A DNA stretch of 64,000 bases from an uncultured Actinomycetes bacterium (GTDB lineage: Bacteria > Actinomycetota > Acidimicrobiia > Acidimicrobiales > AC-9): contig CAVQWQ010000001.1 of assembly GCA_963717645.1 (NCBI GenBank), positions 4,994-68,993 of the forward strand, in the 5' to 3' direction. Both the position numbers and the translations under genes were made by a program. Below the pieces are notes generated by a model that worked only from the letters and a program-made list of their open reading frames with translations, did no database searches and was not told the DNA's origin. Positions 14,170-38,081 of this stretch are shown here, piece by piece. Positions within the stretch are counted from its first letter, which is position 1, and each line of letters starts with the position of its first letter.

Positions 14170-14535
14170 TCAGAGCCCGGAGAGGCGAGCCGGAAGGGTG
14201 GCGACGCGGGCGCGATGTTGGCGGGCCGTGCCGAACACGGCGTCGCCGGACTTCGCCCGCTTCACGTACAGGTGCATGTCGTGCTCCCAAGTGAAGCCGA
14301 TTCCGCCGAGGCTCTGTATCCCCTCCTGGGCTAGGAGACGCTGGCAGTCGCCGGCTGCCGCCTTGGCCATGGAGACGGCCAGAGTCCGACGCTCGTCGTC
14401 CTCGGCGAGGGTCGCCGACGCGAAGTAGCACACGGCCCGCGCTGACTCGAGGGCGACGAACATGTCGGCGAACTTGTGCTTCATGGCCTGAAAGGACCCG
14501 ATGGGCGAGCCGAACTGCTCGCGGGTCTTGGCGTG
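14170..14535 (-). pseudogene. orphan 3' fragment (last ~121 codons) of an acyl-CoA dehydrogenase gene, cut off by island insertion
   Basis: Translation ...HAKTREQFGSPIGSFQAMKHKFADMFVALESARAV...YVKRAKSGDAVFGTARQHRARVATLPARLSGL* matches the C-terminus of the intact ACAD at 36954..38081. By-eye alignment shows 14217-14535 identical to 36989-37307. Homology ends abruptly at 14535/14536. Confidence 0.9.
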
Positions 14536-14579
14536 TGCCAGTGCGCTGATCTGTAGCAGTAGGACCAGGAGGCGTCGAA
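14536..14579 (+). other. element-side junction motif (candidate att half-site) plus RBS of recombinase 1
   Basis: tgCCAGtGcGCTgATCTGTAGCAGTAGgaCCAGGAGGcgtcgaa-ATG. The same architecture recurs at 20162-20203 (CCAGcGtGCTaATCTGTAGCAGTAGcgCAGGAGGcacccaag-ATG). Confidence 0.7.
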
Positions 14580-15993
14580 ATGATGACCACACGCAAGCCT
14601 CGCAACGCAGCGGTTTACTGCCGGATCTCCCGGGACCGGGATGGCCAGGCGCTCGGCGTCGCCCGCCAGGAGAAGGACTGCGCCGAGTGGGCCGCCCGCC
14701 ACGGCTGGACCGTGACGAGCACGCTGGTCGACGATGACCTGTCCGCGTACAGCGGCCGGGCGCGACCGGGTTACCGCCGACTGCTCGCCGACATCGAGGC
14801 GGGTCGCACCGATGGCCTCGTCATCTGGCACCCTGACCGCTTGCACCGCCGGCCTGCCGAGCTCGAGAGCTTCATCGACCTCGTCGAGCGCACCGGGCTA
14901 CCGATCGGCTCCGTCCAGTCAGGCGAGGTCGACCTCACTACGCCAACCGGGCGCATGAGCGCGAGGATCGTGGGCGCCGTGGCCCGACACGAAAGCGAGC
15001 ACAAGGCGGCTCCCCAGGCCAGAAAGCACCGAGAGTTTGGCCGAGGAGGGCTTGCCGTCCGGGGGCGGGTCGCGACCCTTCGGTTACGAGGACGACAAGG
15101 TCACGGTGCGCGACGACGAGGCCGAGCTCATATGCCAGGCGGCCGATCGGCTGCTCGCCGGTGAGAGCCTGCGGGGGATCCTGCGCGACTGGAACGAGCA
15201 GGGGATCACCACCACCACCGGGCGTACCTGGGCGGTGACCGCCTTTCGTCGGATGTTGACCAGCGCCAGGGTTGCTGGTGACCGCGAGCACCACGGGGTC
15301 GTCACCCACGCCGACGCATGGCCCGCCATCCTCGACCGGTCGACATCGGCCCGGGTGCGGGCCGTGCTCTCGGACCCGTCCCGTAGACGGAAGCCCGGAC
15401 CGGCCTACCTGTTGACCGGCCTCGTCCGCTGTGGCCGGTGCGGGGCCGTCATGGTCGGCCGCCCCGTGTGGCGCGGCGGGAAGCGATTGCGCCGGTACTT
15501 CTGCGCCGCCGACCCCCCGGTCCGCGTCGGCTGCAACTCGGTCGGGATCGTCGCTGAGCCGCTCGAGGAGCTGGTATCGGAGGCCGGCCTGGTCGCCCTG
15601 GACGCCCCGGTGGTGCCGAAGGCACTATCCCGCAAGGCTGAGCCGAAGAACGGGGCGGAGGCCGCCCTGCGGGCGCTCGAGGGGCGTGAGGCGGAGTTGG
15701 CCTCCATGTGGGCGAGCGGCACGCTCACCAAGACGGCGTGGAGCGCGGCCCGCGATCAGCTGGCCAAGGAACTGGAGGCGGCGAGAGCCCGTGTGGCTGG
15801 CAGGGTGACCGAGGACGCGGCCGTGGCCTACGCGGGCAAGGGGGCGTCACTGCGCAAGCGGTGGCCGGACCTGTCGACCGATCAGCGCCGGGCAGTGATC
15901 GGGGCCGTGGTCGAGGCCGTGACGATCGCGCCCGTGACGCGCCGTGACAATCGCTTCGACGACAAGAGGGTCTCGATCACACGGCGGGTGTGA
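14580..15993 (+). pseudogene. large serine recombinase, interrupted by a +1 frameshift near 15035
   Basis: Track ORFs 14580..15164 and 15037..15993 together align along the whole intact paralog at 20204..21616. The motif is AVYCRISRDRDG...GLVIWHPDRLHRRP, with a resolvase-type catalytic Ser. Copy 1 has gagTTTGGCC where copy 2 has gagCTAGCC, one extra nt. Confidence 0.85.
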
Positions 15994-16121
15994 GGCCGCC
16001 GGTCAGATAAGTCGGGGAAATGGGTGCTCCTCTGAGGCCCAGATGACATGGCGTCCGGCGCTGGGCGGCTCCGCCATCCGCCAGCGGAGTGGCGGGATCC
16101 ATAGACCCACAACCGCGGTAT

Positions 16122-16200
16122 CTAGCCGTCCTCCTCACCGAGCAGCGCCCAGAGGCCGTCGCACAGGTGGTCGAGGCGGCCCTGCACCTCGCCCAGCCTG
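16122..16200 (-). repeat. R-family copy 1 (3'-terminal fragment only)
   Basis: The reverse strand reads ...LGEVQGRLDHLCDGLWALLGEEDG*, homologous to the C-terminal ends of copies at 16852, 18354, 18802 and 33491. Confidence 0.65.
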
Positions 16201-16247
16201 CTCCCGGCCGCCCCCTCATCGCGTTGACAGGGAAGCGTTAAGTGAGA

Positions 16248-16676
16248 TCAGCAGCGAGTGGAGGCGGCCTGGATGCCGTGCTGCGTCTGCCGGTTGGCGT
16301 TGCAGGGCGCTTGGGCAATGTCGAGGAGCCCGAAGCCGTTCCCGGCCTGATAGTTGCCCTTGACTGTGCCCGCCGGTAGTCCGATGGCGGCCGCTTGGTC
16401 CGGGGTGAGGCCGAGAACGCTGGCCGCCGTGCCGGGCGGCACCTTGTCCCACGCGGCGCCAGCGAAGGGGCCGCCATTGAAGTTTATGTACCACCAGTCG
16501 CCTTGGACGACCCAGATCGTTGGACCGCCCGAGGAGGAGAAATCGATCACCGGAGCCGAGGGTTGGGACGGCGGTGGGCGGCTGACGTTGACGCAGTCGA
16601 GCGCGTAGGCGCTGGTTGCGCTGGCGCCGAGTATGGCAGCGCTCAGCGCCAGGGTGAAGCCCGCTTTCCGAAGCAT
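16248..16676 (-). CDS. small secreted protein (signal peptide, Cys-containing), unknown function
   Basis: MLRKAGFTLALSAAILGASATSAYA|LDCVNVS... is a clear Sec-type signal with an AYA cleavage motif. The mature protein is about 117 aa with Cys near both ends. The track ORF upstream extension is rejected. Confidence 0.55.
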   Translation of the reverse strand: MLRKAGFTLALSAAILGASATSAYALDCVNVSRPPPSQPSAPVIDFSSSGGPTIWVVQGDWWYINFNGGPFAGAAWDKVPPGTAASVLGLTPDQAAAIGLPAGTVKGNYQAGNGFGLLDIAQAPCNANRQTQHGIQAASTRC

Positions 16677-16739
16677 GAGAAAAAGGGTCCTCTCGTAGAT
16701 TCGCCCGGGTGATCGGCCTCGCGACAATGCCGTCGAATC

Positions 16740-16800
16740 CTGACGATTCGCTGACCGGAAGCTGACTGTCTTCTGACTTTCTGACTTCTGACTGTCTGAC
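16740..16800. repeat. array of 7 CTGAC motifs (core TCTGACT repeated at 7-11 nt spacing)
   Basis: cCTGACgattcgCTGACcggaagCTGACtgtcttCTGACtttCTGACttCTGACtgtCTGACttg. It lies 65-125 nt upstream of the start of the secreted-protein gene on the opposite strand. Confidence 0.8.
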
Positions 16801-16851
16801 TTGTGCTTTCCGGACCGATCCGTGACAGATGAACCCGCCAAACACGCTGGG

Positions 16852-16990
16852 CTAGGCGGGTTCGTCGGCGAGCAGAGCCCGAAGGCCTTCGCAGAGCTAG
16901 TCGAGGCGGCCCCGCACCTCGCCGAGCTCGCCAAGCAGCTTCATGGCGTCCTCTCGTGTCATCGCCATTGAGCCGGGACTGAGCATGGCG
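16852..16990 (-). repeat. R-family copy 2 (in-frame stop, pseudogene-like)
   Basis: The reverse strand reads VAMLSPGSMAMTREDAMKLLGELGEVRGRLD*LCEGLRALLADEPA*, with a TAG where the other copies have a sense codon. Confidence 0.65.
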
Positions 16991-17275
16991 ACTGGACCGG
17001 CGATCGCTCAGTCACAGGCGCGTCCGCAGACGGCGTTTCGACGAACCCCAACCCGAGCAAAGGTGGAAATCTCGCTCCGAGGTTGGGCCAGGTCCATGGC
17101 GTAGCTGGCTCGATGCTTTGGGCGGCACCTAGCGCGGCCTGCTGACGTCCTCATAGGCGCCCCTGTCCCGTTAAGACGGACAGGCGTCTCCCCAGGAGGT
17201 CACGGCCGTGTCCATTGACCTCGCAGACAGGTATCTGATAGGCGCTCGAGTGCCATTCGGCTGAAGGGGGCCGTC

Positions 17276-18123
17276 ATGCGTCGCATGCTCGTGGTGGGAG
17301 CTGTAGTCGGGCTCACCTGGGGAGGAGTCGGGGCGCTAACGACGGCGGCACAAGCCGCCCCTGCATCGACCACCGTGGGCTGCACCAAAGGGGTAGGCGA
17401 CAGCAACAAGCTGGTGAGAGCCATCAATAAGGCCAACGACGGCGGCGCGAAGACCATCATTTTGCGCCAAAACTGCACTTACACGCTGACCAGCCCCGCT
17501 GAGGGCTCCGACGGCCTTCCTGTCATCACTGCCTCGATCACGCTCGAGGGCTCAGGTTCAACCATCACCCGAAGCGCCACGGCCCAGTTCCGGATCCTCG
17601 AGGTCGGATCCACCGGCACGCTCACGGCCTCCAATCTGACCGTGAGTGGCGGACACGCCCTTGATGGCGCCGACGGCACGACGGGCACGACGGGCACGAC
17701 GGCAACTGCAGTATTCCCCGACCCGCCCCTGGGGGCACCGGGGGCAACGGCACTGGCGGCAGCAACGGGGCCAATGGGGGCGGCATTCTCATCGACAGCG
17801 GTGGCGCCCTCAGCCTGAGTAACGGCACGGTGAGCAGCAACCTCGCCGGCAACGGTGGGGTCGGCGGCTCGGGTGGCGCTGGCGGTCCCGCCATCAACGA
17901 GGGCGGCCCGGGCGGCAACGGGGGGAACGGCGGGAATGGCGGCAATGGCGGCAATGGCGGGGGGATATTCGGCACAGTCAGCCTGCTGAACAGCTCCGTG
18001 ACCGGCAACAGCGCTGGCACTGGCGGCGCCGGCGGCCCGGGCGGTACAGGCGGTACCAGCCAAGGCAGCACTGCCGGTAATCCCGGGACCGACGGGACTG
18101 CTGGCACACCAGGCTCCCCTTGA
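17276..18123 (+). pseudogene. secreted glycine-rich right-handed beta-helix-type repeat protein, reading frame broken near 17700-17745
   Basis: A signal peptide (MRRMLVVGAVVGLTWGGVGALTTAAQA) is followed by CTKGVGDSNKLVRAINKANDGGAKTIILRQNCTYTL. The frame then runs into a stop at 17818. A second frame continues as GGTGGNGTGGSNGANGGGILIDSGGALSLSNGTVSSNLAGNGGVGGSGGAGG...GNGGNGGNGGNGGNGG. Confidence 0.6.
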
Positions 18124-18353
18124 GGGGATAGCCAAGGACGGAGCTAACCGCGGCCGCAAGGCGCTCAGGCACTCGCTCAAGCCTGGCCGCTATTAGCTCC
18201 AAGAGCCTCCGACGCTGGCTTCGTTCTACGAGCGGAGCCGGCGCGACACCAATTGACCCCCTAACAGTGACTCGCCTTTCCTCCCCGTGAAAAGCCACGG
18301 GGCATCCCCTCGATGCTGGGCGGGGGCGAGGTGGGGCGTCGAGGGGCTGTCGT

Positions 18354-18419
18354 CTAACCGTCCTCCTCGCGGAGCAACGTTCGCAGCCTTTCACGCAGCC
18401 GGTCGAGGGCACACGACAT
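18354..18419 (-). repeat. R-family copy 3 (21-codon 3' fragment)
   Basis: The reverse strand reads MSCALDRLRERLRTLLREEDG*, matching the ...LDRLRDGLRALLGEDV* end of the family. Confidence 0.55.
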
Positions 18420-18464
18420 TAGCCTTGGCTCTTTGACGATCACCCAGACAGGAGGGAGGCCACC

Positions 18465-18785
18465 ATGCCGAAGTACCTCTTCGTTTCTCGTCACACGTCC
18501 GAGGGTGCCCGAGGGCTACTGCGAGAGGGAGGGACCAGCCGACGGGCAGAAACGGATCGGGCGGTGAGCAGCGTCGGGGGCAAGTTGGAGGGCTTCTATT
18601 ACGCCTTCGGTAGCACCGACGTCTTCATCATTGCCGACCTGCCGGACAACGCCTCGGCTGCTTCCTTGAACATCGCCGTCGCTGCTACTGGCGCGATCAC
18701 CGGCGAGACGGTTGTCCTCTTGAGCCCGGAGGAGATCGACACGGCAACAAAGAAGGGTGCCGCATACCGGCCCCCTGGCGTCTAA
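18465..18785 (+). CDS. GYD domain-containing protein
   Basis: MPKYLFVSRHTSEGARGLLREGGTSRRAE...GGKLEGFYYAFGSTDVFIIADLPDN...YRPPGV is a full-length match to the GYD family pattern. A GGAGGGAGG RBS lies upstream. Confidence 0.85.
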   Translation: MPKYLFVSRHTSEGARGLLREGGTSRRAETDRAVSSVGGKLEGFYYAFGSTDVFIIADLPDNASAASLNIAVAATGAITGETVVLLSPEEIDTATKKGAAYRPPGV

Positions 18786-18801
18786 CCCGCGCGGCCATCT
18801 G

Positions 18802-19034
18802 CTATACGTCCTCGCCGAGCAACGCGCGGAGCCCGTCGCGCAGCCGGTCGAGCTGCCCTCGCACCTCGCCAGGTCACCGAGGAGCCGCATCGCGTCCTCT
18901 CGTTTCATGGCCAGTGAGCCCGGCTGGAGCATGGCGATAGACCGACGCAGCTGCTCGATCTCCTCCCGAGCGAGGTAAGGGCGGTCGGGCGGTGGCACGA
19001 ACGTATGTGCCCATCCGTGCGGCGAACGGGTCAA
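18802..19034 (-). repeat. R-family copy 4 (near full length, 1-nt deletion frameshift)
   Basis: MTRSPHGWAHTFVPPPDRPYLAREEIEQLRRSIAMLQPGSLAMKREDAMRLLGDLA, then out of frame. Restoring one G (ctgGcgaggtg versus ctaGGcgaggtg in copy 5) gives EVRGQLDRLRDGLRALLGEDV*. Confidence 0.7.
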
Positions 19035-19132
19035 GCCGGCAATTGACCAAAGTTGGCTTCATTGACGCTGTGCAGGCGGGGTGAGAGAGTCTGTCGGACG
19101 AGGCAGGAGAAACCGAGGCGGTGGGGGGATCG

Positions 19133-19669
19133 ATGGGACTGTCGACACGGCCGGTGCAGGCGAAGTCGCGACTGTACGGACTCTTCCGAGTCGCTCTAGG
19201 GGCCTCGGTACTCGGAGGCGGGATATGGCTCGGCACTGCAACCGTGGCCGCGCCCCCAGCAGGGGCAGCTCGAGGTTGCCTCACGACGTCAGTTGACGTA
19301 AAGACGCAGAACAAGACAAGCGTTCCGCTCGACCTAGATCGCGCAAGACACGGTCTTAGCAACACGTGGTGCACGTTGCCGGGCAACCCTGTTGGTCCAC
19401 ACAAAGTCGCTCGGTTTGAGGCAGGCGACGACTTCTTCGCAACGACGGTCAGTGTCTCATACGTGGCGCCAAACAATGACACTATCTCGTTGTTTGCGCA
19501 GTCCGGTTTCGATACCGATGGGGCGCGTTGCCTCGTTGTGCCAAACGGAAACTTGCCATCTCCGTACCGATGCAGCGCCACCTGGCGCGCCGACGTTCAA
19601 GATCGAGGAGCGATATTTGGACTCGGCACACATGTGGTGCTTGTCGACTGGGTGATTGAGGGCCCCTAG
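19133..19669 (+). CDS. secreted/membrane-anchored hypothetical protein
   Basis: Has an N-terminal hydrophobic segment (LFRVALGASVLGGGIWLGTATVAAPPAGAA) followed by a Cys-containing beta-rich domain. The segment 19280-19680 is visibly less GC-rich. I recognise no homolog. Confidence 0.5.
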   Translation: MGLSTRPVQAKSRLYGLFRVALGASVLGGGIWLGTATVAAPPAGAARGCLTTSVDVKTQNKTSVPLDLDRARHGLSNTWCTLPGNPVGPHKVARFEAGDDFFATTVSVSYVAPNNDTISLFAQSGFDTDGARCLVVPNGNLPSPYRCSATWRADVQDRGAIFGLGTHVVLVDWVIEGP

Positions 19670-19738
19670 AACGGCGACAGGTCCTGGCGGTTTTCCGGCG
19701 TAGGTCCTGAGTCGTCGGACGTTGGAGCTGCTTCTACC

Positions 19739-19945
19739 TTAAGCGACATTGGGCAACGCGATGTCGGTCTCGAAGACCTCCTCGGCGATCACCACCCGAA
19801 GTCCGGGATCGAGCTCCGCCGCACAACAGGACAGCAGCGTGGTCTTGCCGGAGCCGGGAGGTCCGGCGAACACGATCGACAGCCGGGCCCGGACACAGGC
19901 ACGGAGCAACTCGGCGGCGCTGGACGGCGCCGCCCTCGCTCGGGT
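19739..19945 (-). pseudogene. fragment of a CpaF/VirB11-family secretion ATPase (Walker A region only)
   Basis: AAELLRACVRARLSIVFAGPPGSGKTTLLSCCAAELDPGLRVVIAEEVFETDIALPNVA* resembles the ...NILVSGGTGSGKTTLLNAL...RIVTIEDTAEL core of these ATPases, but only about 65 residues remain. Confidence 0.6.
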
Positions 19946-20126
19946 GTTCCGGTCCGACGACTGGCACGCCATCGACGTCGTGATCCAGAGCATGGCCCTC
20001 GCCGAGGGTGCGGCCAAGGACGCCTGCACATGGCCGGGTGCGACCGCGGCCACTGCCGCCCACGGTCTCGAACCGTCGGCCAACGGCAACGGGCGGGCGC
20101 CGGCTGGGGCCTAGCGCAACGCCCTC

Positions 20127-20161
20127 TCAGAGCCCGGACAGGGTGGCCACGCGGGCGCGGT
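20127..20161 (-). repeat. 35-nt third copy of the ACAD gene 3' end (last 10 codons plus stop)
   Basis: tcagagcccggacagggtggccacgcgggcgcggt reverse-translates to RARVATLSGL*. Compare 36954-36988 (ttagagcccggagagggtggcgacccgggcgcggt, 4 mismatches) and 14170-14216 (which has a 12-nt insertion). Confidence 0.8.
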
Positions 20162-20203
20162 CCAGCGTGCTAATCTGTAGCAGTAGCGCAGGAGGCACCC
20201 AAG

Positions 20204-21616
20204 ATGATGACCACCCGCAAGCCCCGCAACGCAGCGGTCTACTGCCGGATCTCCCGCGACCGGGATGGCCAGGCGCTAGGCGTCGCCCGCCAGGAGAAGG
20301 ACTGCGCCGAGTGGGCCGCCCGCCACGGGTGGACCGTGACGAGCACGCTCGTAGACGATGACCTCTCCGCCTACAGCGGCCGGGCCCGCCCCGGCTATCG
20401 CCGACTGCTCGCTGACATCGACGCAGGGCGCACCGACGGCCTTGTCATCTGGCACCCTGACCGCCTGCACCGCCGGCCGGCCGAGCTCGAGTCATTCATC
20501 GACCTAGTCGAGCGCACCGGGCTACTGATCGGCAGCGTGCAGAGTGGCGAGGTCGACCTCACCACCCCGACGGGGCGCATGAGCGCGAGGATCGTGGGCG
20601 CGGTGGCGAGGCACGAGAGCGAGCACAAGGCGGCCCGGCAGGCTCGTAAGCACCGAGAGCTAGCCGAGGAGGGTTCCCCGTCCGGTGGCGGGTCTCGACC
20701 CTTCGGATACGAGGACGACAAAGTGACTGTTCGCGACGACGAGGCCGAGCTCGTCCTCGAGGCGGCGGAGCGGGTGCTCGCCGGTGAGAGCCTCCGGGGC
20801 ATCGCGAGGGATTGGAACGACCGCGGGATCACCACGACGCCGGGGCGCCCCTGGTCGGTGACTACCTTACGCCGGATGCTGACCTCGGCCCGTGTGGCTG
20901 GTGACCGGGAGCACCACGGCGTCGTCACCGCCGCGGACGCGTGGCCCGCCATCCTCGACCGCAAGACGTCGGCGAGGGTCCGCGCCGTGCTCTCGGACCC
21001 GTCTCGTAGACGTCGGCCCGGACCGACCTACCTGTTGACCGGCCTCGTGCGCTGCGGGCGCTGCGGAGCCGTCATGGTGGCCCGCCCCGTGTGGCGCGGT
21101 GGGAAGCGCCTACGCCGCTACTTCTGCGCGTCCGACCCGCCGGCCCGTATCGGATGCAACAGCGTCGGGATCACGGCTGAGCCGCTCGACGAGCTGGTCA
21201 CCGAAGCCGTCTTGACCCGCCTGGACAGCCCGGCGCTAGCTCGGGCCCTGTCCAAGAAGAGCCGACCTAAGAACGGCTCAGAGGCGACCCTCAGGGCCCT
21301 CGAGGAGCGCGAGGCCCAGCTGGCGGAGATGTGGGCCGCGGGCGAATTGACCCGCTCAGCGTGGTCGGCTGCTCGCGACCGGCTAGCCAAGGAGATCGAG
21401 GCAGCACGGGCGAAGGTGGCCGGCAAGGTAAGCGATGAGGCGACGAGCGACCTCGTCGGCAAGGGCGAGCAGCTACGCCGCCGCTGGCCCAAGCTGTCGG
21501 TCGAGCAGCGGCGGGTAATCATCGCCAGCGTGGTCGAGTCGGTCACCATCGCCCCGGTCACCCGGGCGCAGAATCGCTTCGACGCCGGCCGGGTTTCAGT
21601 CCTCTGGCGGGCCTAA
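20204..21616 (+). CDS. large serine recombinase (integrase), intact
   Basis: 470 aa. The N-terminal resolvase domain reads AVYCRISRDRDGQALGVARQE...GLVIWHPDRLHRRPAELE. It also has a recombinase domain, a zinc-ribbon (CGRCGAVMVARP...RYFCAS...GCNSV) and a coiled-coil tail. A CAGGAGG RBS precedes it. Confidence 0.9.
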   Translation: MMTTRKPRNAAVYCRISRDRDGQALGVARQEKDCAEWAARHGWTVTSTLVDDDLSAYSGRARPGYRRLLADIDAGRTDGLVIWHPDRLHRRPAELESFIDLVERTGLLIGSVQSGEVDLTTPTGRMSARIVGAVARHESEHKAARQARKHRELAEEGSPSGGGSRPFGYEDDKVTVRDDEAELVLEAAERVLAGESLRGIARDWNDRGITTTPGRPWSVTTLRRMLTSARVAGDREHHGVVTAADAWPAILDRKTSARVRAVLSDPSRRRRPGPTYLLTGLVRCGRCGAVMVARPVWRGGKRLRRYFCASDPPARIGCNSVGITAEPLDELVTEAVLTRLDSPALARALSKKSRPKNGSEATLRALEEREAQLAEMWAAGELTRSAWSAARDRLAKEIEAARAKVAGKVSDEATSDLVGKGEQLRRRWPKLSVEQRRVIIASVVESVTIAPVTRAQNRFDAGRVSVLWRA

Positions 21617-22926: not shown

Positions 22927-23189
22927 AGCCTGACCACCTCCTCGGCCTGCCGAACGCTCAAGGCCCTCGCTGCCCCCTCGAGAGCGAGTTCCCGAAGATC
23001 AGCTACGCCATCGGCAACTGGCGCGAAGCCTGCGAGCGGCTCGAGGAGATCGCAGGCATCTTCGAGGACCGTGGTGGTCTGCCTCCAGGTAGCCAAGCCG
23101 AGATGCGGCAGGCACTCCGTCAGGCTGGCCAGGACGCCCTCGCCAAGATGCTGGACGACCTTGAGGCAGCTTGGGACGCGGAGCCATGA
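22923..23189 (+). CDS. hypothetical protein
   Basis: ATGA overlap with the preceding ORF. The sequence is MKPDHLLGLPNAQGPRCPLESEFPKISYAIGNWREACERLEEIAGIFEDRGG...; no family recognised. Confidence 0.45.
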   Translation: MKPDHLLGLPNAQGPRCPLESEFPKISYAIGNWREACERLEEIAGIFEDRGGLPPGSQAEMRQALRQAGQDALAKMLDDLEAAWDAEP

Positions 23190-25855
23190 GCGCCGTCGAG
23201 ATCATTGCGGCCTACGCCGAGCGGCTGTGGGACAACCGGGTCGGATGGGTCTTCGTCGCTAGCGGTGAGCCGTACGACGACGGCAAGGTACGCCATCGCG
23301 GCTGGGCCGAGCGGGCGTTCGCCTGGCCCCGTCACCGGGACGAGCTCGTCGAGACAATCACGACCATGTCGACTGGGCGCGACGTGTTCGTCACGCCGGG
23401 GATGTCAGAGAACCCGCTTCGCGACTCGAAGAAGCGCCGCGACCTGCCGACCTCGTACTTGTGGGCGGACCTCGATCGCGTCACTGATGAGGTGCACGAT
23501 CGCGTGACCGCGCTGGCTGACGGGGGAGGGTTTGTCGTCGACTCAGGCAGCGATGAGCACTGTCATGTCTACATCGAACTCGCCCAGCCGGCACAGCCGG
23601 CCCAGGCTGCCGAGCTCAACCGCCGACTCGCCCAGTACCTGGACGGCGACCCGAGCCCGGCCGCGCTCAACGCCTTCCTACGCCCGCCGGGCTCGCTCAA
23701 CTGGAAGCCATTCGTACTCGACCTAGCGGACGAGCCGGCGCCTGTGAGGACGACCTACGAAGCAGGGAGGGGCTGGCCGCTCGAGGAGCTGGACCGTCTG
23801 CTCCCGCCCGTACGAGCTACCCGCCATCGGACGGCCGACGAGGCCGAGGCGGAGCCGGTCGGTGACGTGCCGGCGGCTGTGGCCGTCTTCCTCGCCGACG
23901 CCGCGGACGTGGACGACCGATCGGCCCGCCATTACAACTTCGTCGGCGCGGCAACGGCCGCGGGCATGAGCGACGGCCAGATCTTGACCCTCGTCAAAGA
24001 CCACAAGCCGTCGACGGCCAAGTACGGCGAGCGCGTGGAGGAGGAGACGCGGCGCACGCTCGGCAAGTTCGTGACCGAGGAGCCAGAAGCCACAACGGGC
24101 AACGGCTGGCACCCGCCCGGGTGGATTGAGCCGGGCGACTGGGACGAGGACACCGTCGATGAGGACGTGTCTACCAAGGTAGACACATCGACCGGGGGCA
24201 AGGCGGGGATCATCAGCGCCGGCCGGCCGCCGATAGAGATAGAGACAAGCGAGGGCGAGTCCAGGAGCAGCATCGTTCGCAGGCTCCTAGCGACGAGCGA
24301 TGTCGCCGGAGCGGACGAGGTGGGTGTCGGCCCGGACGGGCTGCGCTTCACCGATGCCGGTAACGCCGCTCGCCTCCTGCGCGTGGCCGAGGGTCGTGTT
24401 CGCTTCGTCCACGCCTGGGGCAAGTGGATCGTCTACGGGCAGGGACGATGGGCCGTCGACTTCGGCGACGTGCTCGTCGGCGAGTTCGCCAAGCAGGTCG
24501 CCACCGAGCTGTTCGCTCGGGTCCCGTCGCTTCACGATCGCGAACGGGACCAGGTCTTCGCCTGGGCGAAGCGTTGCGAGACGAGAAGCACGATCGGCGC
24601 CATGGTCCACCTCGCCCGGGGCGCGGCGGTGATCGGGCACGAGGAGCTCGATACCGACCCCTGGATCCTGAACGTCGCCAACGGCACGGTTGATCTACGC
24701 ACCGGCCATCTCCGATCGCATCGGCCCGACGACCTGTGCACGATGCAGGTCCCGGTCGCCTACGACCCGGGCGCCCGGGCGCCGCTGTGGGAGGCGTGCC
24801 TCGAGCGCTGGCAGCCCGATCCCGAGGTGCGGGCCTATCTCCAACGCGAGGCCGGAGCAGGCGCCACCGGTCGCCCGACCGAGATCCTCGCCGTCCACCA
24901 CGGTGGGGGAGGCAACGGCAAGTCGAGGTACTTCGGTGCATTGGGTCGCACCCTCGGTCCCTACTTCGTCGTGCCCCACCGATCGCTCCTCGTCCGCCAG
25001 CGCCACGAACAGCACGACACGGTGCGGGCTGACCTGTTCCGTCGTCGTCTGGCCGTGGCCGCGGAGACCGACTCCGGGGCCCGCATCGACGAGGAGAAGG
25101 TGAAGGCCCTCACCGGAGGCGACCGGATCAAGGGCCGCCGCATGCGTGAGGACCCCTGGGAGTTCTGGCCCACGCACACTCTCGCCCTGTTCTCCAACTA
25201 CCGCCCGCGGGTGAAGGGAGAGGACACCGGCATCTGGCGTCGGCTGGTGCTGGTGCCGTGGAACGTGGAGATCCCACCCGGCGAACGGGACGACAACCTC
25301 GCCACCAAGTTGGAGACAGAGGCGCCGGGCATCCTCGCCTGGATCGTCGAGGGCGCGCGCCAGTTTTGCGAACGGGGTCTCGACCCACCGGAGGTAGTCA
25401 GGATGGCCACGGAGTCGTATCGAGCTAGTGAGGACACTTTCTCCCGCTTCGTCGAGGAGCGTTGCGAGCTCGACCCGGAGGCCCGGGCCAAGGCCGGTGA
25501 CCTGTGGGAGGCGTGGACCGATTACTGCCGGACCGAGGAGGAGCAGCCAGGGCGGAAGCAGGACGTCATGGCTCGGCTGGACACTCGATTCGCGCTGGCT
25601 GAACACCGCGTGGAGACAAGTCATCTTCAAGGGCGTCAGGGTCCAAGAGGAGGGGGGTCGACTGCCGTGAATCGTAACGCTCTGACCAGGGGGTTTTCGC
25701 GGCGACCAGGACTTTTGCGCAAGGCACGCAGGACTCGTCCCTATACCCACGCGAGGGCCCTATCTCTATGGGCGAACCGCCCGAGACCTGCGAGACCTGC
25801 AGCGATGACAGTTCCGGGTCTGAGGCGTGCCATGACAGTTCGAGGTGGACGATGA
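23186..25855 (+). CDS. replication protein: AEP-type primase-polymerase N-terminus fused to D5_N/P4-family SF3 helicase
   Basis: The AEP motifs are YLWADLDRV (DxD) and DSGSDEHCHVYIEL (sGxGxHxY). The D5_N-like region reads FTDAGNAARLL...WGKWIVYGQGRWAVD...NVANGTVDLRTG...YDPGARAPLWEACLERW. Walker A is HHGGGGNGKSRY. ATGA start overlap. The 3' end is uncertain (see findings). Confidence 0.85.
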   Translation: MSAVEIIAAYAERLWDNRVGWVFVASGEPYDDGKVRHRGWAERAFAWPRHRDELVETITTMSTGRDVFVTPGMSENPLRDSKKRRDLPTSYLWADLDRVTDEVHDRVTALADGGGFVVDSGSDEHCHVYIELAQPAQPAQAAELNRRLAQYLDGDPSPAALNAFLRPPGSLNWKPFVLDLADEPAPVRTTYEAGRGWPLEELDRLLPPVRATRHRTADEAEAEPVGDVPAAVAVFLADAADVDDRSARHYNFVGAATAAGMSDGQILTLVKDHKPSTAKYGERVEEETRRTLGKFVTEEPEATTGNGWHPPGWIEPGDWDEDTVDEDVSTKVDTSTGGKAGIISAGRPPIEIETSEGESRSSIVRRLLATSDVAGADEVGVGPDGLRFTDAGNAARLLRVAEGRVRFVHAWGKWIVYGQGRWAVDFGDVLVGEFAKQVATELFARVPSLHDRERDQVFAWAKRCETRSTIGAMVHLARGAAVIGHEELDTDPWILNVANGTVDLRTGHLRSHRPDDLCTMQVPVAYDPGARAPLWEACLERWQPDPEVRAYLQREAGAGATGRPTEILAVHHGGGGNGKSRYFGALGRTLGPYFVVPHRSLLVRQRHEQHDTVRADLFRRRLAVAAETDSGARIDEEKVKALTGGDRIKGRRMREDPWEFWPTHTLALFSNYRPRVKGEDTGIWRRLVLVPWNVEIPPGERDDNLATKLETEAPGILAWIVEGARQFCERGLDPPEVVRMATESYRASEDTFSRFVEERCELDPEARAKAGDLWEAWTDYCRTEEEQPGRKQDVMARLDTRFALAEHRVETSHLQGRQGPRGGGSTAVNRNALTRGFSRRPGLLRKARRTRPYTHARALSLWANRPRPARPAAMTVPGLRRAMTVRGGR

Positions 25856-28627: not shown

Positions 28628-28654
28628 CGCATACATTGCGCGCCGTAACGCGGC

Positions 28655-30043: not shown

Positions 30044-30064
30044 AAAAAGAAATCGGGACTGGCG

Positions 30065-30792: not shown

Positions 30793-31700
30793 TCACGGCA
30801 CCGCGAACTCCGCCGGGGTGACGTAGCTGGCGTCGTGGGTGATCTCGCCGTGGAGCGCGGCGGTGGTTGAACCAGTCGACGTAGGTGAGCGTGGCGAACT
30901 CGACGTCCTCGACACCCCTCCAGGGGCCCCGGTGGTGGATGAGCTCGAACTTGTAGAGCCCGATGAAGCTCTCGGCCATGGCGTTGTCGTACGAGTCGCC
31001 TCTGGATGCCGACCGAGGCGCACGATGTCGTTCTCGGCGAGGCGCTCGGTGAAGCGAATGGACAGATATTGACTGCCCGGTTCAATGCGATGGACCAGGA
31101 AGATCGAGATCTGGCCGGCTCCGGTGCAGTCGAGACGGCCATCTCGAGGTGCGTCGTCGCAAGGCTGAGCTCAGACGGGCGACGATCTTCCATCCAACGA
31201 GCCTTGCGGGAGAACGGCTGTTGAGGATGGATGCGGCGTACACCCAGCCCGGAATGCGTCTTCACGTAGGTCAAGTCGGCCACCCAGAGCCGGTTTGGGG
31301 CCCGGTGCCTTGAAGTTGCGCTCGACGAGGTCGTCGGGGCGGTGCTGGCGGTCATCGGCATGCGGTCGTGACCTTGTAGGTCCGTCCCCGCCGGCGCCCA
31401 CAAAGGCCCAGCTCACGCATCAGGCGCTCGACAGTGCAGCGGGCGACTCTGGTGCCCTCTCGGTTGAACTGGGTCCAGACCTTGTCGACCCCGTAGACGG
31501 AGAGGTTGTCGGCGTGGACCCGCGGCGATGGCCACCTTGAACTGCTGGTCGTCTCCGCTCGCGGGCTCGAGCGGCGGACGCTTCTTGGCCACCCAGTAGG
31601 TGTTCGGGGCGATCTTGCAGCCGTGCTCGGTGAGCACCCGGCAGATCGGCTCGACCCCGAAGCGGTCCCGGTGTGCGTCGATGAAGGCGACGATCAGCGC
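30793..31700 (-). pseudogene. IS3-family transposase OrfB (DDE), at least 3-4 frameshifts
   Basis: Pieces occur in three frames: [41 protein letters not shown]; NLSVYGVDKVWTQFNREGTRVARCTVERLMRELGL; PNRLWVADLTYVKTHSG; DSYDNAMAESFIGLYKFELIHHRGPW...YVDWFNHRR; LHGEITHDASYVTPAEF. Confidence 0.8.
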
Positions 31701-32041
31701 TGTTGGCGGTCGAGCTCCGCCCCGAAGAAATGGGCTGCTGACTTGAGGATTTCGTTGGCCCGCCGCAGCTCCTTCACCTCACGTTCGAGCTCCTTCATCT
31801 TCACCCGTTCGTCGGTGGTGAGCCCGGGCCGCTCCCCAGCGTCGATTTCCGCCCGACGGACCCACTGGCGGAGCGTCTCGTGGTTGATCGAGAGCTTCGC
31901 CGAGATCGACTCGATGGCCTTCCACTGCGACGGGTACTCGTCCTGGTGGTCGAGGACCATCCGCACGGCCCGTTCCCGGACCTCCGGTGGGTACGGCGGC
32001 CGCCGGCCCTCCTCTTCCCTGGCATGGCTCCATCCTCTCAA
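31694..32041 (-). CDS. IS3-family transposase OrfA (HTH)
   Basis: [95 protein letters not shown] is the classical IS3/IS911 OrfA pattern. Confidence 0.85.
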
Positions 32042-32075
32042 GAGAAAAACAAGGGACCGCAGTGGGCCTTTACTA

Positions 32076-33754: not shown

Positions 33755-34910
33755 CGGGTGCGGGCCACGGTCGGCTCCCAGGCCCGAGTGGCGATGGACG
33801 GGGTACTGTAGGAGACGATCCGCGTGAGCTGTGAGACAACCAAGCCGTGGCCCGGCCAGGTCGTTAGCAGGTCAGGCACCTATGTCGTCATCAACCAACG
33901 CTGCGTACGGGCGCCCGACCATCCGGGCGAGCGGTGCGCGTGCAGCGAAAAATGGTCGGCGTGACTGGCGAGGAGGCTGGACGCCATTGAGGCCAACGCC
34001 AAGAATCGCATCGGCAAGCCGCTGCGGCAAGGAGGTCAAGTGAGGCGAGCGCTTGTCCTGCTCGCCCTCGTGGCAGCGGTCGCTCTGCTGTCCGTGCCAC
34101 CCGCCGAGGCAGCGGGGCGCACCGTCCACGTCTCGGGCCTGACGCCCTGAGAGATCGCAGGGGGAGCGGCCGGAGCAGCTGACTGCGCCCCAGCAGGGAA
34201 GCCGGGCGGCGGCCTTACCTGTCTGACAGGACACAGTGAGACCACCTTCACCCGTCGAGGGAGGGGCTAGCCTCGGCTTCCTCTTCGCTCGCCTATCCGA
34301 GGGTGACCCCGATGGACGGGCTAGCTAGGGCGTCCACTCTTATACCCACCATCGGCCAGTCCGCCAGGGCGCCTGCTGAGGTGGGTCGATGCAGGGGGGA
34401 CGCATTCCGGGGTGTAGGCGCCCCCGTGAGCCCCCCGGACAGGAGGGCCGGCACTAGATACCCCCAATATGTGCAGACCCTCGGGGTAGCCTCGACACTC
34501 GGTGCTCCCCGCCGCCGACCCTGCCCCCAAGTCCTTCCACCGGGCCGTTGAGCGCCGCAACGCCGCCCTGGACGGCCCCGCACTGGCTCGTCTGTAGCAG
34601 GCCAGGCCCGACGCCATGCTGGAGGTCACCTCGACCATGGTGGACGAGAACCTGGCCGGCGTGTGGGGCGGCCTGCGCGTTCCCCGACACCGTCTTCCCC
34701 GACATCGAGCTCACGACACCGTTCTTCCGCGTCTCCCACACCGGCAACGTGGCGCGGATGATCTGCTCGAGGTGCGCGGTCAGCCACCACCTCCGGTTGT
34801 GACGCTTGTCATGGTGAACCCCAACCTCGCCCAGGCGTACGCTCCGCATAGCCATGCTGTCCGGCCGTCCTCCTGGGGCCGGCCATGACGGGCTCGAGTG
34901 GAGGAGCGAC

Positions 34911-36128
34911 ATGTCCGATCTCGCCGTCACCTACAACCCCTTCGAGCCGGGGTTCGCCAGCAATCCCTACCCCCACTACCAGGCCCTGCGAGAGGCCGAC
35001 CCGGTCCACCACAGCCCGCTGGGATTCTGGATGCTCTTTCGCCACGACGACGTCCTGCGCTTCCTGCGCGATCCCGGGCTCAGCGTCGAGGACCGGCGGG
35101 CGACCCCGACGCCTTTGGACGACCTGGCTCGCGAGGTGCAGGGCGATCGGGCTGAGCGTGGAAGCCTCGCCATGCTCAATCGCGATCCGCCTGACCACAC
35201 CCGCCTGCGGCGGCTTGTCTCCAAGGCGTTCACCCCGAAGGTGATCGACGGGCTACGACCCCGAATCGGTCGCCTGGTGGAGGACAAGCTGGACGCCATC
35301 GAGGCGGCCGGGGAGGTCGAGCTGATCAGCGCCCTCGCCTTCCCCCTGCCCTTCGAGGTGATTTCAGAGATGCTGGGCATGCCGGACGGCGACCGCGACC
35401 AGCTCCGCGAGTGGTCAGGCACGCTCGTCAAGAGCCTCGAGCCGATGTTCGACGTCGAGCAGCTGCAGGCGATCGTCGAGGCTGGCGACGCCATGCGGGA
35501 GTACACCACCGACGTCATCTCGTGGAAGCGGCGCAACCCAGCCGAGGACCTCCTCTCCGCCCTCGTCGCGGCGGAGGAGCAGGGTGACGCCCTCTCCGAC
35601 GAGGAACTGCTCGAGCAGGTCATGCTCCTCTACATCGCCGGCCACGAGACCACCGTGAACCTGATTGGCAACGGCACCCTCGCCCTGATGACCAACCCCG
35701 ACGAGCTCGAGCGCCTCCGCGCCGACCCGTCCCGCGACGCCAACGCCGTGGAGGAGCTGCTGCGCTACGACAGCCCAGTGCAGATGTCCCGACGCATCAC
35801 CCTGGTCGAGGTCGAGATCGACGGCAAGCTCATCGAGCCTGGCAGCTTCGTGGGCCTGGGGCTTGCGTCGGCGAACCGAGACCCGGTCCACTGGGGCGAG
35901 AGCGCCGACGAGCTCGACCTCGCCCGGCAGGGTGCTGGCCAGCACGTATCGTTCGGCGGCGGACCGCACTATTGCCTGGGTGCGGCGCTGGCTCGCCTCG
36001 AGGGGCAGCTGGCCATCGGCGGCTTGATCCGGCGGTTCGCCAATCTCGAGCTGGTGGGCGAGCCGCAATGGAACGGCCGCCTCAACCTGCGGGGCCTGGC
36101 CGGACTGCCGGTCGCAGCCCGGCGCTGA
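34911..36128 (+). CDS. cytochrome P450 (island cargo)
   Basis: A GGAGGAG RBS precedes MSDLAVTYNPFEPGF...LNRDPPDHTRLRRLV...YIAGHETTVNLI (I-helix)...EELLRYDSP (ExxR)...VSFGGGPHYCLGAALAR (heme Cys loop). Confidence 0.9.
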   Translation: MSDLAVTYNPFEPGFASNPYPHYQALREADPVHHSPLGFWMLFRHDDVLRFLRDPGLSVEDRRATPTPLDDLAREVQGDRAERGSLAMLNRDPPDHTRLRRLVSKAFTPKVIDGLRPRIGRLVEDKLDAIEAAGEVELISALAFPLPFEVISEMLGMPDGDRDQLREWSGTLVKSLEPMFDVEQLQAIVEAGDAMREYTTDVISWKRRNPAEDLLSALVAAEEQGDALSDEELLEQVMLLYIAGHETTVNLIGNGTLALMTNPDELERLRADPSRDANAVEELLRYDSPVQMSRRITLVEVEIDGKLIEPGSFVGLGLASANRDPVHWGESADELDLARQGAGQHVSFGGGPHYCLGAALARLEGQLAIGGLIRRFANLELVGEPQWNGRLNLRGLAGLPVAARR

Positions 36129-36260
36129 GGCCGGCCACGAGTGCCGGCGCTTCGCCCTGGCCCGTCCGGCCTTGCGCGGCATCTGGGGCGGCCTCACCGA
36201 GGACGAGCAGGAGGAGTGGCGGGCACTGTATAGGGAGATGGCTCCTCGCCATCCGGCCCG

Positions 36261-36545
36261 TCACTGTTGACGGTACTCGTCCACCTGGTCCTGAAAGCTC
36301 TGCAGCACGTCTTGCATCTCCCTCTCGCCGCCGCGGGCCCGAATGACACTGAGGCTGTGCCCGGCGATGCCGAACGCTACCGACGACATGGCTGCCAGTG
36401 AGCGAGGATCCGTCGGTGCGGTGGCGTCGATCTGCGCTACTGCCAGTTGATCGCCAGATAGCCACGCCTTCAAGCGCTGGAGGGTGCGGTCGGTGGCGTC
36501 CGCAATGAGCTGTCGGTCTGCCGGGCTCGGGGGGTCGTCAGCCAT
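36261..36545 (-). CDS. hypothetical small protein
   Basis: A 94-aa ORF with reasonable composition (MADDPPSPADRQLIADATDRTLQRLKAWLSGDQLAVAQIDATAPTDPRSLAAM...MQDVLQSFQDQVDEYRQQ). No family recognised. Confidence 0.45.
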   Translation of the reverse strand: MADDPPSPADRQLIADATDRTLQRLKAWLSGDQLAVAQIDATAPTDPRSLAAMSSVAFGIAGHSLSVIRARGGEREMQDVLQSFQDQVDEYRQQ

Positions 36546-36658
36546 GCAGTAATGGTCTCACGGAGGGATGGCCTTGATCCGGGGCATGGAGACCCCTTGG
36601 AGGGCAGGGTGCCCTCGTTCTCCTTGTTTCGCGTTCAGTCACCTAGGCTCGACCTTCT

Positions 36659-37066
36659 GTGGCCATCGCCGCCGAACCAATCTGGCCGCAGGGAGGTCAG
36701 GCTTCCCCCGTCGCCGGGGCGGATTGGCTGGACTGGGCCAAGCCCCCGGCGTGGGCGGCCGATGCCGCGTGCAAGGAGCACCCGGAGCTCGACTTCGTGC
36801 CTCCGTCCGGCGTCTACCTGGCTTCTCTCCGGGCGGTCTGCGAGGGGTGCCTCGTGCGCCGGGAGTGCCTGGCCTACGCCATGGCTGACGCGACCCTGCA
36901 GGGCGTGTGGAGTGGGACGACGGAGCGGGAGCGGAAGGCGATGCGGGGTCGGCTTAGAGCCCGGAGAGGGTGGCGACCCGGGCGCGGTGTTGGCGGGCCG
37001 TGCCGAACACGGCGTCGCCGGACTTCGCCCGCTTCACGTACAGGTGCATGTCGTGCTCCCAAGTGA
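36659..37066 (+). CDS. WhiB-like (Wbl) iron-sulfur transcription factor; the 3' end reads across the island/host junction
   Basis: The Cys pattern C-x24-C-x2-C-x5-C (AACKEHPELDF...AVCEGCLVRREC) and the GVWSGTTERER motif (G[VI]WGG..ER) are Wbl hallmarks. The start (GTG 36659) is uncertain. The last ~37 codons are antisense to the ACAD gene end. Confidence 0.7.
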   Translation: MAIAAEPIWPQGGQASPVAGADWLDWAKPPAWAADAACKEHPELDFVPPSGVYLASLRAVCEGCLVRRECLAYAMADATLQGVWSGTTERERKAMRGRLRARRGWRPGRGVGGPCRTRRRRTSPASRTGACRAPK

Positions 37067-38081
37067 AGCCGATTCCGCCGAGGCTCTGTATCCCCTCCTG
37101 GGCTAGGAGACGCTGGCAGTCGCCGGCTGCCGCCTTGGCCATGGAGACGGCCAGAGTCCGACGCTCGTCGTCCTCGGCGAGGGTCGCCGACGCGAAGTAG
37201 CACACGGCCCGCGCTGACTCGAGGGCGACGAACATGTCGGCGAACTTGTGCTTCATGGCCTGAAAGGACCCGATGGGCGAGCCGAACTGCTCGCGGGTCT
37301 TGGCGTGCTCGAGGGCGATATCGAAGATCGACTGGCAGGTCCCCACCATCTCCAGCGCCAGCGCCGTCGACGCCTCCTCGACGACGCGGGCGAGCACCAG
37401 CGCGCAGCTTCCCGGCTCGCCCAGCGCGCGGTCGGGACCGACGGTCACGCCGTCGAGGCTCACCGTCGCGTACTGGCGGCTGGCGTCGAGTGTCTGGACG
37501 GCGGTCGCCACGACAGCGTCCCGGGGGACGACGAACAAGGCCAGACCGTCGGGTCCCTCCGTGCCATCGAGTCGGGCCGCGACCACCAGCTCTGTGGCGG
37601 TGGCGCCCTCGGCGACATAGTGCTTCGAGCCGTCGAGGAGCCAGCCATCCCCATGGCGGCGGGCCACCAGTCCGACGTCCTCACCCGCCCAGCTCCCCGA
37701 CTCCTCGGCCACCGCCAGGGTGCCGGTGATGCGACCGGCCGCCACGTCACCGAGGAACCGTTGCTGCTGCGCTGTGGTGCCCGCTTCACGGATCGCGGGG
37801 ACGAACTGGGACACCGTCGGCAGGAACGGTCCGGGAGCGATCGCCCGTCCGAGCTCCTCGACGACGACGGCCAGCTCGACGAATCCAAGCCCCAGGCCCC
37901 CGTGCTCCGGATCGATCGTCAGCGCCGTCCAGTCGAGGTCGACCATGGCCGCCCAGAGGTCGTCGGCCGAGGCGCCCTTCTCGACCACCTCGCGCACGAA
38001 GCTGGGCGGGCACTCGCGTGCGAGCACGGCCCGCACCGACGTGCGCAGCTCCTCCTGGTCGGCTGTGAACTCGAGGTCCAT
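36954..38081 (-). CDS. acyl-CoA dehydrogenase (integration target; intact reading frame)
   Basis: Trimmed to MDLEFTADQEELRTSVRAVL.... ACAD motifs run throughout, and the C-terminus reads ...EHAKTREQFGSPIGSFQAMKHKFADM...GGIGFTWEHDMHLYVKRAK...ATLSGL*. The upstream 174 codons of track ORF 36954..38603 overlap queE antisense and are rejected. Confidence 0.9.
   Translation of the reverse strand: MDLEFTADQEELRTSVRAVLARECPPSFVREVVEKGASADDLWAAMVDLDWTALTIDPEHGGLGLGFVELAVVVEELGRAIAPGPFLPTVSQFVPAIREAGTTAQQQRFLGDVAAGRITGTLAVAEESGSWAGEDVGLVARRHGDGWLLDGSKHYVAEGATATELVVAARLDGTEGPDGLALFVVPRDAVVATAVQTLDASRQYATVSLDGVTVGPDRALGEPGSCALVLARVVEEASTALALEMVGTCQSIFDIALEHAKTREQFGSPIGSFQAMKHKFADMFVALESARAVCYFASATLAEDDERRTLAVSMAKAAAGDCQRLLAQEGIQSLGGIGFTWEHDMHLYVKRAKSGDAVFGTARQHRARVATLSGL

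Follow-up and report, generated by a model that had tools for sequence, protein, structure and literature searches.

How can the 3' end of a single protein-coding gene be present three times at one locus while the gene itself stays open? This question is raised by a stretch of DNA from an uncultured Acidimicrobiales bacterium (GenBank assembly GCA_963717645.1, contig CAVQWQ010000001.1, positions 4,994 to 68,993), in which the end of an acyl-CoA dehydrogenase (ACAD) gene occurs at three places, two of them directly beside genes for large serine recombinases (LSRs). Coordinates below refer to this stretch of 64,000 nucleotides (the window), which has a G+C content of ~70%. A sequence-only reading had proposed that two related LSR elements are stacked in the 3' end of the ACAD gene. 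All features that it described were confirmed to be present, far beyond chance. The explanation that we favor, and consider probable though by no means certain, is that two related LSR elements, E1 and then E2, were added to a native convergent pair of ACAD and P450 genes; the two elements would be nested in the ACAD 3' end rather than placed side by side. This explanation involves the following features.

12919..14166, plus strand: P450-1 (Pfam p450), the native downstream neighbor of ACAD and the left chromosomal flank.
14170..14535, minus strand: copy A, the displaced native ACAD 3' end (117 codons and the stop, with 4 codons inserted in frame).
14536..14562, plus strand: P' arm at the left end of E1, ~85% identical to 20162-20187 and followed by a ribosome-binding site.
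14580..15993, plus strand: SR1, an LSR pseudogene with a 1-nt insertion at 15036 and an Arg to Pro change.
19724..19756, plus strand: P-arm-like right end of the E1 body, with a putative crossover at ~19755/19756.
19757..20110, minus strand: pseudogene fragment from the interior of a T2SSE/CpaF-like ATPase gene (positions 127-185 of Pfam T2SSE).
20127..20161, minus strand: tail B, the last 10 ACAD codons and the stop, which form the displaced end of the E1-side ACAD copy.
20162..20188, plus strand: P' arm of E2, followed by a ribosome-binding site.
20204..21616, plus strand: SR2, an intact LSR gene of 470 codons (Pfam Resolvase, Recombinase and Zn_ribbon_recom).
36954..36988, minus strand: tail C, the functional last 10 ACAD codons and the stop, probably brought by E2.
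36989..37307, minus strand: a 319-nt part of intact ACAD, with the same sequence as 14217-14535.
36954..38081, minus strand: the intact ACAD gene (375 aa, three ACAD Pfam domains).

Read along the plus strand, the order on the left is P450, then tail A with its 319 nt, the body of E1 (P' arm, SR1, cargo and P arm) between two junctions, the T2SSE fragment and tail B. To the right of tail B a further junction is followed by the P' arm and SR2 of E2, the rest of this element up to a WhiB gene, tail C, a last junction, the 319 nt and the body of ACAD.

The ACAD gene is indeed intact, as had been stated: it is of full length, has three Pfam domains and aligned end to end with its orthologs at 90–91% identity, the nearest loci being those of Acidimicrobiales metagenome-assembled genomes. 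Exact-sequence look-ups of the window ACAD and the window SR2 found neither on record. BLAST aligned 14187-14535 with 36957-37307 at 98.9% identity across 351 nt (E ~1e-180). Copy A had been described as the last ~121 codons of the gene; the repeat is real and its true span is 117 codons plus the stop (354 nt), copy A being 366 nt long because of a 12-nt insertion, which is in frame. Identity to the intact gene begins only at 36989, exactly the E2 junction, and from there a direct count found the same nucleotide at 319 of 319 positions (14217-14535 versus 36989-37307, 0 differences). The third copy, the last 10 codons plus the stop at 20127-20161, was also recovered: tail B matched the last 35 nt of ACAD with ~89–91% identity (BLAST 32/36 and 30/33), at E = 4e-7 against the whole 64 kb window, in which no fourth copy of the ACAD 3' end was found. 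Tails B and C differ at four sites, all synonymous. The three tails translate alike (..RARVATLSGL*) and all substitutions among them are synonymous, as expected of genuine ACAD ends from different alleles. Computational alignment of the three copies, which had been suggested as a check, thus revealed collinear ACAD ends far beyond chance, and the tails at 14170, 20127 and 36954 form direct repeats with the end of the target gene at element boundaries.

The breaks were also where they had been reported. ACAD homology stops at 14535/14536 and at 20161/20162, and each time a related arm (TGCCAGTGCGCTGATCTGTAGCAGTAGG and CCAGCGTGCTAATCTGTAGCAGTAGC, respectively), an AGGAGG sequence and an LSR gene follow. 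In an LSR attP site, which is ~40–50 bp long and lies beside the integrase gene, a central dinucleotide is flanked by two arms that form an imperfect inverted repeat; integration yields attL (B joined to P') and attR (P joined to B'). Both ACAD breaks fall within 2 nt of the same position in the two ~85% identical arms and lie 7–10 nt from a GCT(A/G)A motif, which is found 9–11 nt from the crossover in related attL sites. This comparison showed both left, putatively attL-type, junctions to be located at homologous P' arms. We placed the attL crossover of E2 at the right end of the tail because homology between E1 and E2 starts at 14531 = 20157 and because of the 7–11 nt spacing to GCTAA. With this placement tail B would be target-derived and tail C element-derived, in agreement with the earlier proposal that tail B is the target side and that tail C was brought by E2. 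A hand comparison of the ACAD sites as mimics of the T2SSE attB (GCCACG, GCGAT.TCG) gave inconsistent registers, with many offsets tried, and was dropped.

An LSR has a resolvase catalytic domain with the nucleophilic serine at its N-terminus, then a recombinase and a zinc-ribbon domain, and SR2 is a complete three-domain LSR of this type (Resolvase, 3.7e-29; Recombinase, 2.2e-13; Zn_ribbon_recom, 3.1e-11). Alignment with 35 sequences gave a set of invariant columns, which we located in SR2; S17 in YCRIS is one of them. SR1 has the same domains despite its frameshift; the insertion at 15036 splits the gene into two open reading frames (ORFs), and the Arg to Pro replacement is at a nearly invariant position. 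The two genes are 80.5% identical in DNA, and the 5' recombinase sequences of E1 and E2 are 91% identical. The claim that both elements have LSR genes therefore holds for SR2 as an intact gene, SR1 being a frameshifted pseudogene.

Empty sites, for which a search of related genomes had been proposed, were found in four relatives (loci L002, L013, L211 and L212), whose ACAD proteins have 83–91% amino acid identity to that of the window. In each of them an uninterrupted ACAD stop is followed by a ~22–27 nt spacer and a convergent P450-1 ortholog, and synteny is kept on both sides, with QueC and radical-SAM genes upstream and AMP-binding and amidohydrolase genes beyond P450. The occurrence of empty-site alleles in these four relatives showed that the ~22.4 kb separating copy A from the intact ACAD gene is inserted DNA. 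A different insert, 1.47 kb long (6233-7700), was observed between the ACAD and P450 stops in another relative (L001, DASXYV010000306.1; ACAD 90% identical); it contains a gene for a 429-aa secreted protein and no recombinase, so this intergenic spot is variable in another lineage too.

Additional evidence came from a second strain, represented by contig_152158 of sample ERZ25039489 (L210), which also encodes the C-terminal ORF of SR1. It aligned with window positions 12855-20160, stopping exactly at the end of tail B. Over P450 and copy A the two strains have ~65 differences, and flank divergence is 3.2%. In P450, 40 of 1236 nt differ, 31 of them at third codon positions, with 8 amino acid changes; copy A differs by ~3%, like the adjoining P450, which showed that copy A is host-lineage DNA. 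Across 14536-20160 (5.6 kb), only 4 differences were detected. Divergence thus falls from ~3% to 0.07% between 14510, the site of the last flank difference and 25 nt from the junction, and 14536. From 14536 to tail B, including the T2SSE fragment, the DNA behaves as one recently shared unit, and this switch is the strongest evidence for the left boundary and the mobility of E1. Descent with a flank swapped through homologous recombination is an alternative to mobility, but would need a crossover inside the last 25 nt of homology. The copy A of L210 has frameshifting indels, as expected for a pseudogene fragment, and its P450-proximal native tail is identical to tail B at 36 of 36 positions, with a partial tandem copy in front of it. 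In the window, the 12-nt insertion in copy A is a degenerate form of this partial copy.

We also noted that the native ACAD tail next to P450 (window 14170-14216; L210 1334-1390) contains a partial tandem duplication (~17 nt) in which the stop codon is included. L210 retains this duplication intact, and in the window a loss of 6 nt has fused it in frame; in both it replaces the P450-ACAD spacer of the relatives, which is ~22–27 nt long and hairpin-like.

The right end of E1 revealed a second target. E1 had been delimited as 14536-20126; the left boundary stands, and the right one has to be moved, since the 5.2-kb body extends from the P' arm at 14536 to a P-arm-like end near 19755, where T2SSE DNA is joined. 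The 30 nt to the left of the T2SSE fragment (CTTCTACCTTAAGCGACATTGGGC) align with the P arm of the attP of a related element (L082), with the end of a related contig (contig_201037) and with the attR of another relative (L088), sharing the motif CTACCTT..GAC.TTGG. This is the sole such site in the window. A Smith-Waterman scan of the whole window for an inverted partner of the P' arms found none that scored above shuffled queries, the hand-aligned E1 P arm included, so the assignment is based on likeness to the P arms of relatives. The T2SSE fragment ends with ..LPNVA, the codon at which the attR junction of L088 and the attL junctions of L083, L084, L085 and L167 are located. It lacks the first ~67 codons, and tail B begins ~16 nt further on. 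The P-arm-like end together with this junction codon indicated that the right flank of E1 is T2SSE DNA and not ACAD, and showed the right end of E1 to be a putative attR-type junction with a T2SSE gene, a recurrent target of related LSRs. As a mobile unit, E1 would thus carry two successive foreign flank pieces, first T2SSE and then ACAD. The near-identity of E1 in two strains and the presence of the T2SSE scar are shown by the sequences themselves.

The best homologs of SR2 are only 61% identical to it, and its identity to integrases of mycobacteriophages and Streptomyces phages is 32–36%. Related LSRs from soil Actinomycetota (49–61% identical to SR2) have a common geometry: the LSR start adjoins a protein-coding gene that lies on the other strand, at the side where this gene is broken. 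The targets were of three kinds: the T2SSE/CpaF-like ATPase gene (the five loci named above), comM in a subgroup with 44–48% identity (L093, L094, L105, L115, L134 and L163) and a relaxase-like gene (L164). The six comM loci (Mg-chelatase-like ATPase) are hit at the ..HGVLFLDE.. Walker-B region in constant orientation. In L088, where both ends are visible, the T2SSE gene is simply interrupted at ..LPNV|A..; its attL and attR have an 11-nt core in common, and the joined ends give a 50-bp palindromic attP. As a separate observation, many contigs with LSR relatives (loci L084-L163) start 100–400 nt upstream of the recombinase start codon, breaking at the integration junction as expected if the populations are mixed for the presence of the element.

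The layout suggests the following course of events. E1 would earlier have resided in a T2SSE-ATPase gene, ~350 nt of which was kept as a flank. It would then have inserted at 37307/37308 (now 14535/14536), 117 codons before the ACAD stop, and brought an ACAD 3' end (the 319 nt and tail B) at its far side, such that the native 3' end, copy A, was displaced next to P450 and ACAD stayed open. E2, a phage- or satellite-like element, would have entered the boundary between the tail and the 319 nt of the E1-side copy, 10 codons before the stop (20161/20162), leaving tail B at its left and supplying tail C at its right. The reading frame of ACAD remains open because the element side of each junction is itself an ACAD 3' end. 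Later gene conversion between the two direct copies would account for the identity of the 319 nt and is the simplest reconciliation; such a conversion tract would reach from the E1 junction at one end to the E2-borne tail and the indel at the other. Alternative sources of this identity are a conspecific origin of the captured fragment and Campbell-type re-entry. From sequence alone we infer that these junctions are products of the recombinases, that the elements brought the 3' ends and that E1 preceded E2. The order of events had previously been left undecided; the layout fits only one sequential order, with E1 first, although a cointegrate of the two elements would give the same product. The idea that incoming elements supply surrogate 3' ends likewise survives in part: the element sides do carry ACAD ends, but the 319 nt are either not foreign or have been homogenized. 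As direct repeats, these 319 nt would also give a RecA-dependent route to deletion of the whole 22.8 kb, which would restore the empty site.

Several observations weigh against this reconstruction. First, the two 319-nt copies have no differences, compared to ~10% between tails, ~3% in copy A of L210 and 6–12% in other species, so that, for this segment to be element-borne, gene conversion or a conspecific donor has to be assumed in addition. Second, E1 has flanks from different genes (ACAD on the left and T2SSE on the right), for which a single clean LSR event is insufficient. Third, the SR1 frameshift and the resulting split ORFs are common to L210 and the window, indicating that E1 did not spread by its own enzyme after the mutation; recent spread would need SR2 or another enzyme acting in trans, or transfer of a whole chromosomal segment. 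Fourth, the element-side left arm is nearly identical to the target arm (~90% for E2, identical for E1), so that the presumed attP looks like an attL. Canonical LSRs recombine a P-type with a B-type site and do not recombine attL with attB. Fifth, E2 has no canonical P arm, such as those at the end of contig_201037 and in L082, and an ACAD tail is found in its place. Finally, no second example of an LSR with ACAD is available, since none of 80 ACAD loci had an SR homolog beside ACAD, and no flank repeat was found within 10 kb in any of the ~37 related LSR loci that had sufficient downstream sequence, so replacement ends are not a general trait of this LSR family.

Some of these points can be accommodated if the long duplication arose by homologous recombination and not by an LSR, a possible but rather unlikely alternative. 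In that case an E1 circle carrying ~354 nt of a conspecific ACAD 3' end, gained by aberrant or RecA-mediated excision, would have entered an intact ACAD gene by a Campbell-type single crossover, and an LSR would explain only the end of the fragment beside the P' arm. The 319/319 identity, set against ~3% in the conspecific L210 and 6–12% in other species, fits this scheme, as do the match of tail B to the native tail of L210, the dead SR1 of both strains, the attL-like site that is not a canonical LSR substrate and the absence of a flank repeat from other members of the LSR family. However, the tails differ while the adjoining 319 nt do not, contrary to what a simple conspecific Campbell event predicts. 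The sharp switch at 14510-14536 in L210 is instead predicted by site-specific insertion at one position in two hosts, and the 35-nt repeat of E2 with its four synonymous differences is left unexplained.

It is also conceivable, if unlikely, that the stack is a record of a serine-integrase element changing its target while sparing the host gene. In each aberrant excision the enzyme would recombine the attL of the element with a pseudo-site located a few hundred bases inside the right flank; the element would leave with captured flank, first ~350 nt of T2SSE and later 354 nt of ACAD. On entering a naive genome it would re-insert at this pseudo-site, and the captured flank would then serve as the replacement end of the gene. 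An actinobacterial LSR with relaxed, Ccr-like site rules (attL-type × attB-type) would be needed for this. The known exception to the attL × attB bar is provided by Ccr recombinases, which have ~50-bp direct repeats as att sites (PMC6222049).

Entry of E1 and E2 together appears improbable. Here E2 would have inserted into the ACAD tail on a free E1 circle, and the 22.8-kb cointegrate would have entered the chromosome once, at the site 117 codons before the stop. The final layout equals that of sequential insertion, the E1-borne copy has an intact boundary between tail and 319 nt that E2 could use, and the 91% identical 5' recombinase sequence suggests past contact of the two elements. L210, which stops exactly at tail B, is silent on E2 either way. 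However, a near-identical copy was found in databases for E1 and none for E2, which fits independent histories. An assembly artefact, in which an empty-site chromosome and a separate circle sharing the 319 nt were threaded into one linear path, is very improbable indeed, for although assemblers classically make mis-joins at exact repeats like the 319 nt and many related contigs break right at the recombinase gene, the independent L210 contig runs from P450 through copy A and SR1 to tail B, copy A has its own diverged tail, and a circle with host ACAD sequence must still stem from an integrated state.

Returning to sequential insertion of E1 and E2, the remaining content of the elements comprises the following features.

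15994..19723: cargo of E1, made up of small ORFs; among these are one for a GYD-domain protein (18465-18785), a Gly-rich secreted-like ORF and a small-ORF module in four copies.
23171..25855, plus strand: primase/helicase of E2 (D5_N, P4-family primase C-terminal domain).
26579..28247, plus strand: terminase large subunit of E2 in two ORFs, the ATPase followed by the nuclease.
31605..32041, minus strand: IS3-family remnant in E2 (orfA and an ALIL frameshift pseudoknot).
34854..36128, plus strand: P450-2, cargo of E2, 33% identical to P450-1.
36659..36953, plus strand: WhiB gene at the right end of E2, whose ORF continues through tail C antisense to ACAD.

The small-ORF module is 110–230 nt long and encodes a conserved C-terminus (..LAMKREDAMRLLGELGEVQGRLDRL.DGLRALL..) with no Pfam match. 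Four copies are present in E1 (16128-16202, 16861-17121, 18364-18407 and 18808-19038), one in E2 (33491-33721) and three in the related contig_201037 (L081 3378-3508, 4443-4592 and 6270-6335), with identity of up to 93.5% where the adjoining DNA is ~75% identical.

E2 is 16.8 kb in size, and its closest relative is contig_201037. The same two-gene terminase arrangement is found in that contig, and an interpretation of the split as a decay frameshift was therefore rejected. The complete WhiB ORF (36659-37066) runs antisense across the region of the ACAD stop and terminates 112 nt within the ACAD gene. When the ends of E2 are joined (36988 to 20162), WhiB, the att region and SR2 follow each other, and the WhiB frame closes at a TAA in the P' arm. 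The same order is present in L082; as it was seen in that relative only, we rejected it as a family-wide architecture. No relative of the E2 primase exceeded 70% identity over part of the protein, and E2 has thus not been seen in a second context. Prophages combine packaging and replication genes with virion structural genes, which phage satellites lack. Among the other E2 ORFs scanned, which were part of the total, there was no capsid, portal or tail match (Pfam; some PHROGs), and LSR relatives are present on IMG/VR viral contigs of 26–45 kb. No tyrosine integrase (Phage_integrase) was found among the ORFs scanned, a set that covered part of the small ORFs, and both boundaries have serine recombinases. 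Rfam and tRNA scans detected no tRNA or tmRNA target, the sole match being the ALIL pseudoknot of the IS3 remnant (74.5 bits), which overlaps an HTH_Tnp_1 orfA; no orfB (integrase-core) frame was recognized downstream. A C-terminal WhiB fragment (36136-36262, plus strand) begins 8 nt past the P450-2 stop, a position which suggests that P450-2 may have inserted into or beside an older WhiB gene. With only 33% identity, P450-2 was rejected as a duplicate of P450-1. Outside the ACAD stack, a 734-codon ORF (40317-42518, minus strand) has internal direct repeats (40558-40595/41410-41447 and 40873-40936/41833-41896) that are 81–92% identical and ~850–960 nt apart.

We compared the ACAD stack with several known systems. 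The LSR elements of soil Actinomycetota described above (those in T2SSE genes, L093 and others, and contig_201037) resemble it in geometry, in the P' and P arm motifs and in cargo, which includes a P4-type primase or Prim-Pol, a split terminase and WhiB. In contrast, they plainly interrupt their targets and have no replacement end within 10 kb, and the junctions of L088 share only the 11-nt core. Serine integrases of actinophages, such as Bxb1 and phiC31, are three-domain enzymes like SR2. They enter protein-coding genes (for example, Bxb1 enters groEL1), and the integrase gene adjoins attP; attP and attB are short and little alike, and the target gene is not known to be rebuilt. At the ACAD locus, however, the element side reproduces 10 or 117 target codons. 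A closer parallel in this respect is provided by e14 and phage 21 in the icd gene of E. coli and by tRNA islands. These use tyrosine integrases, and the element brings a substitute 3' end with mainly synonymous differences, such that the gene keeps its function while its native end persists as a fragment. The ACAD stack likewise has substitute 3' ends with synonymous differences, but has serine recombinase genes at both junctions. Tyrosine integrases need an identical core in attP and attB, whereas serine recombinases need only a shared central dinucleotide.

The most similar systems are the SCCmec and ECC cassettes, LSR elements that occupy the 3' end of the protein-coding rlmH gene, have direct-repeat flanks and form composite arrays (PMC6222049, PMC12648241). 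The earlier statement that LSRs, a protein-coding target, restoration of its 3' end and accretion are rarely described together was therefore overstated (PMC6222049, PMC12648241). In both cases LSR elements (CcrAB and CcrC in rlmH/orfX for the cassettes) are located in the 3' region of a protein gene that is left functional, imperfect direct repeats with the gene end are present, and composite arrays and remnants without a working recombinase occur (PMC6222049, PMC12648241); the three ACAD tails are the counterpart of the att sites that recur in a composite SCC. There are also clear differences. SR2 is not a Ccr enzyme (NCBIfam CcrB 59 bits with a cut-off of 900, CcrA 51 with 700, CcrC 30 with 900), and the target is an ACAD gene in Acidimicrobiales and not rlmH. 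One site lies 117 codons inside the gene and has a 354-nt replacement end, the second element sits in the replacement end of the first, and E2 has phage-like replication and packaging genes.

The ACAD stack thus appears to work functionally like an SCC/ECC array and yet to be outside that family, because the enzyme is not Ccr and the target is not rlmH. The principle of an LSR element that keeps the 3' end of a protein gene open and permits accretion is already known from SCCmec/ECC. No long-standing question is opened here, the general phenomenon being known and SR2 activity being a prediction. If the sequential explanation is true, gene-sparing, stackable LSR integration extends from the cassettes of Firmicutes to phage-like elements of uncultured soil Actinomycetota, with a replacement end (117 codons) much longer than is known for SCC. 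Should the stack record a change of target by aberrant excision, it would point to a route by which gene-preserving integration sites could arise in general. The T2SSE scar and the comparison of two strains offer a rare view of an LSR element with a changed target, which bears on the origin of new attB specificities, and also on LSR mining for genome engineering, as SR2 has candidate attP and attB sequences. Compared to SCC/ECC, the distinguishing features of this locus are the 117-codon replacement end, the nesting of a second element inside it, the target-switch scar and the Acidimicrobiales host.

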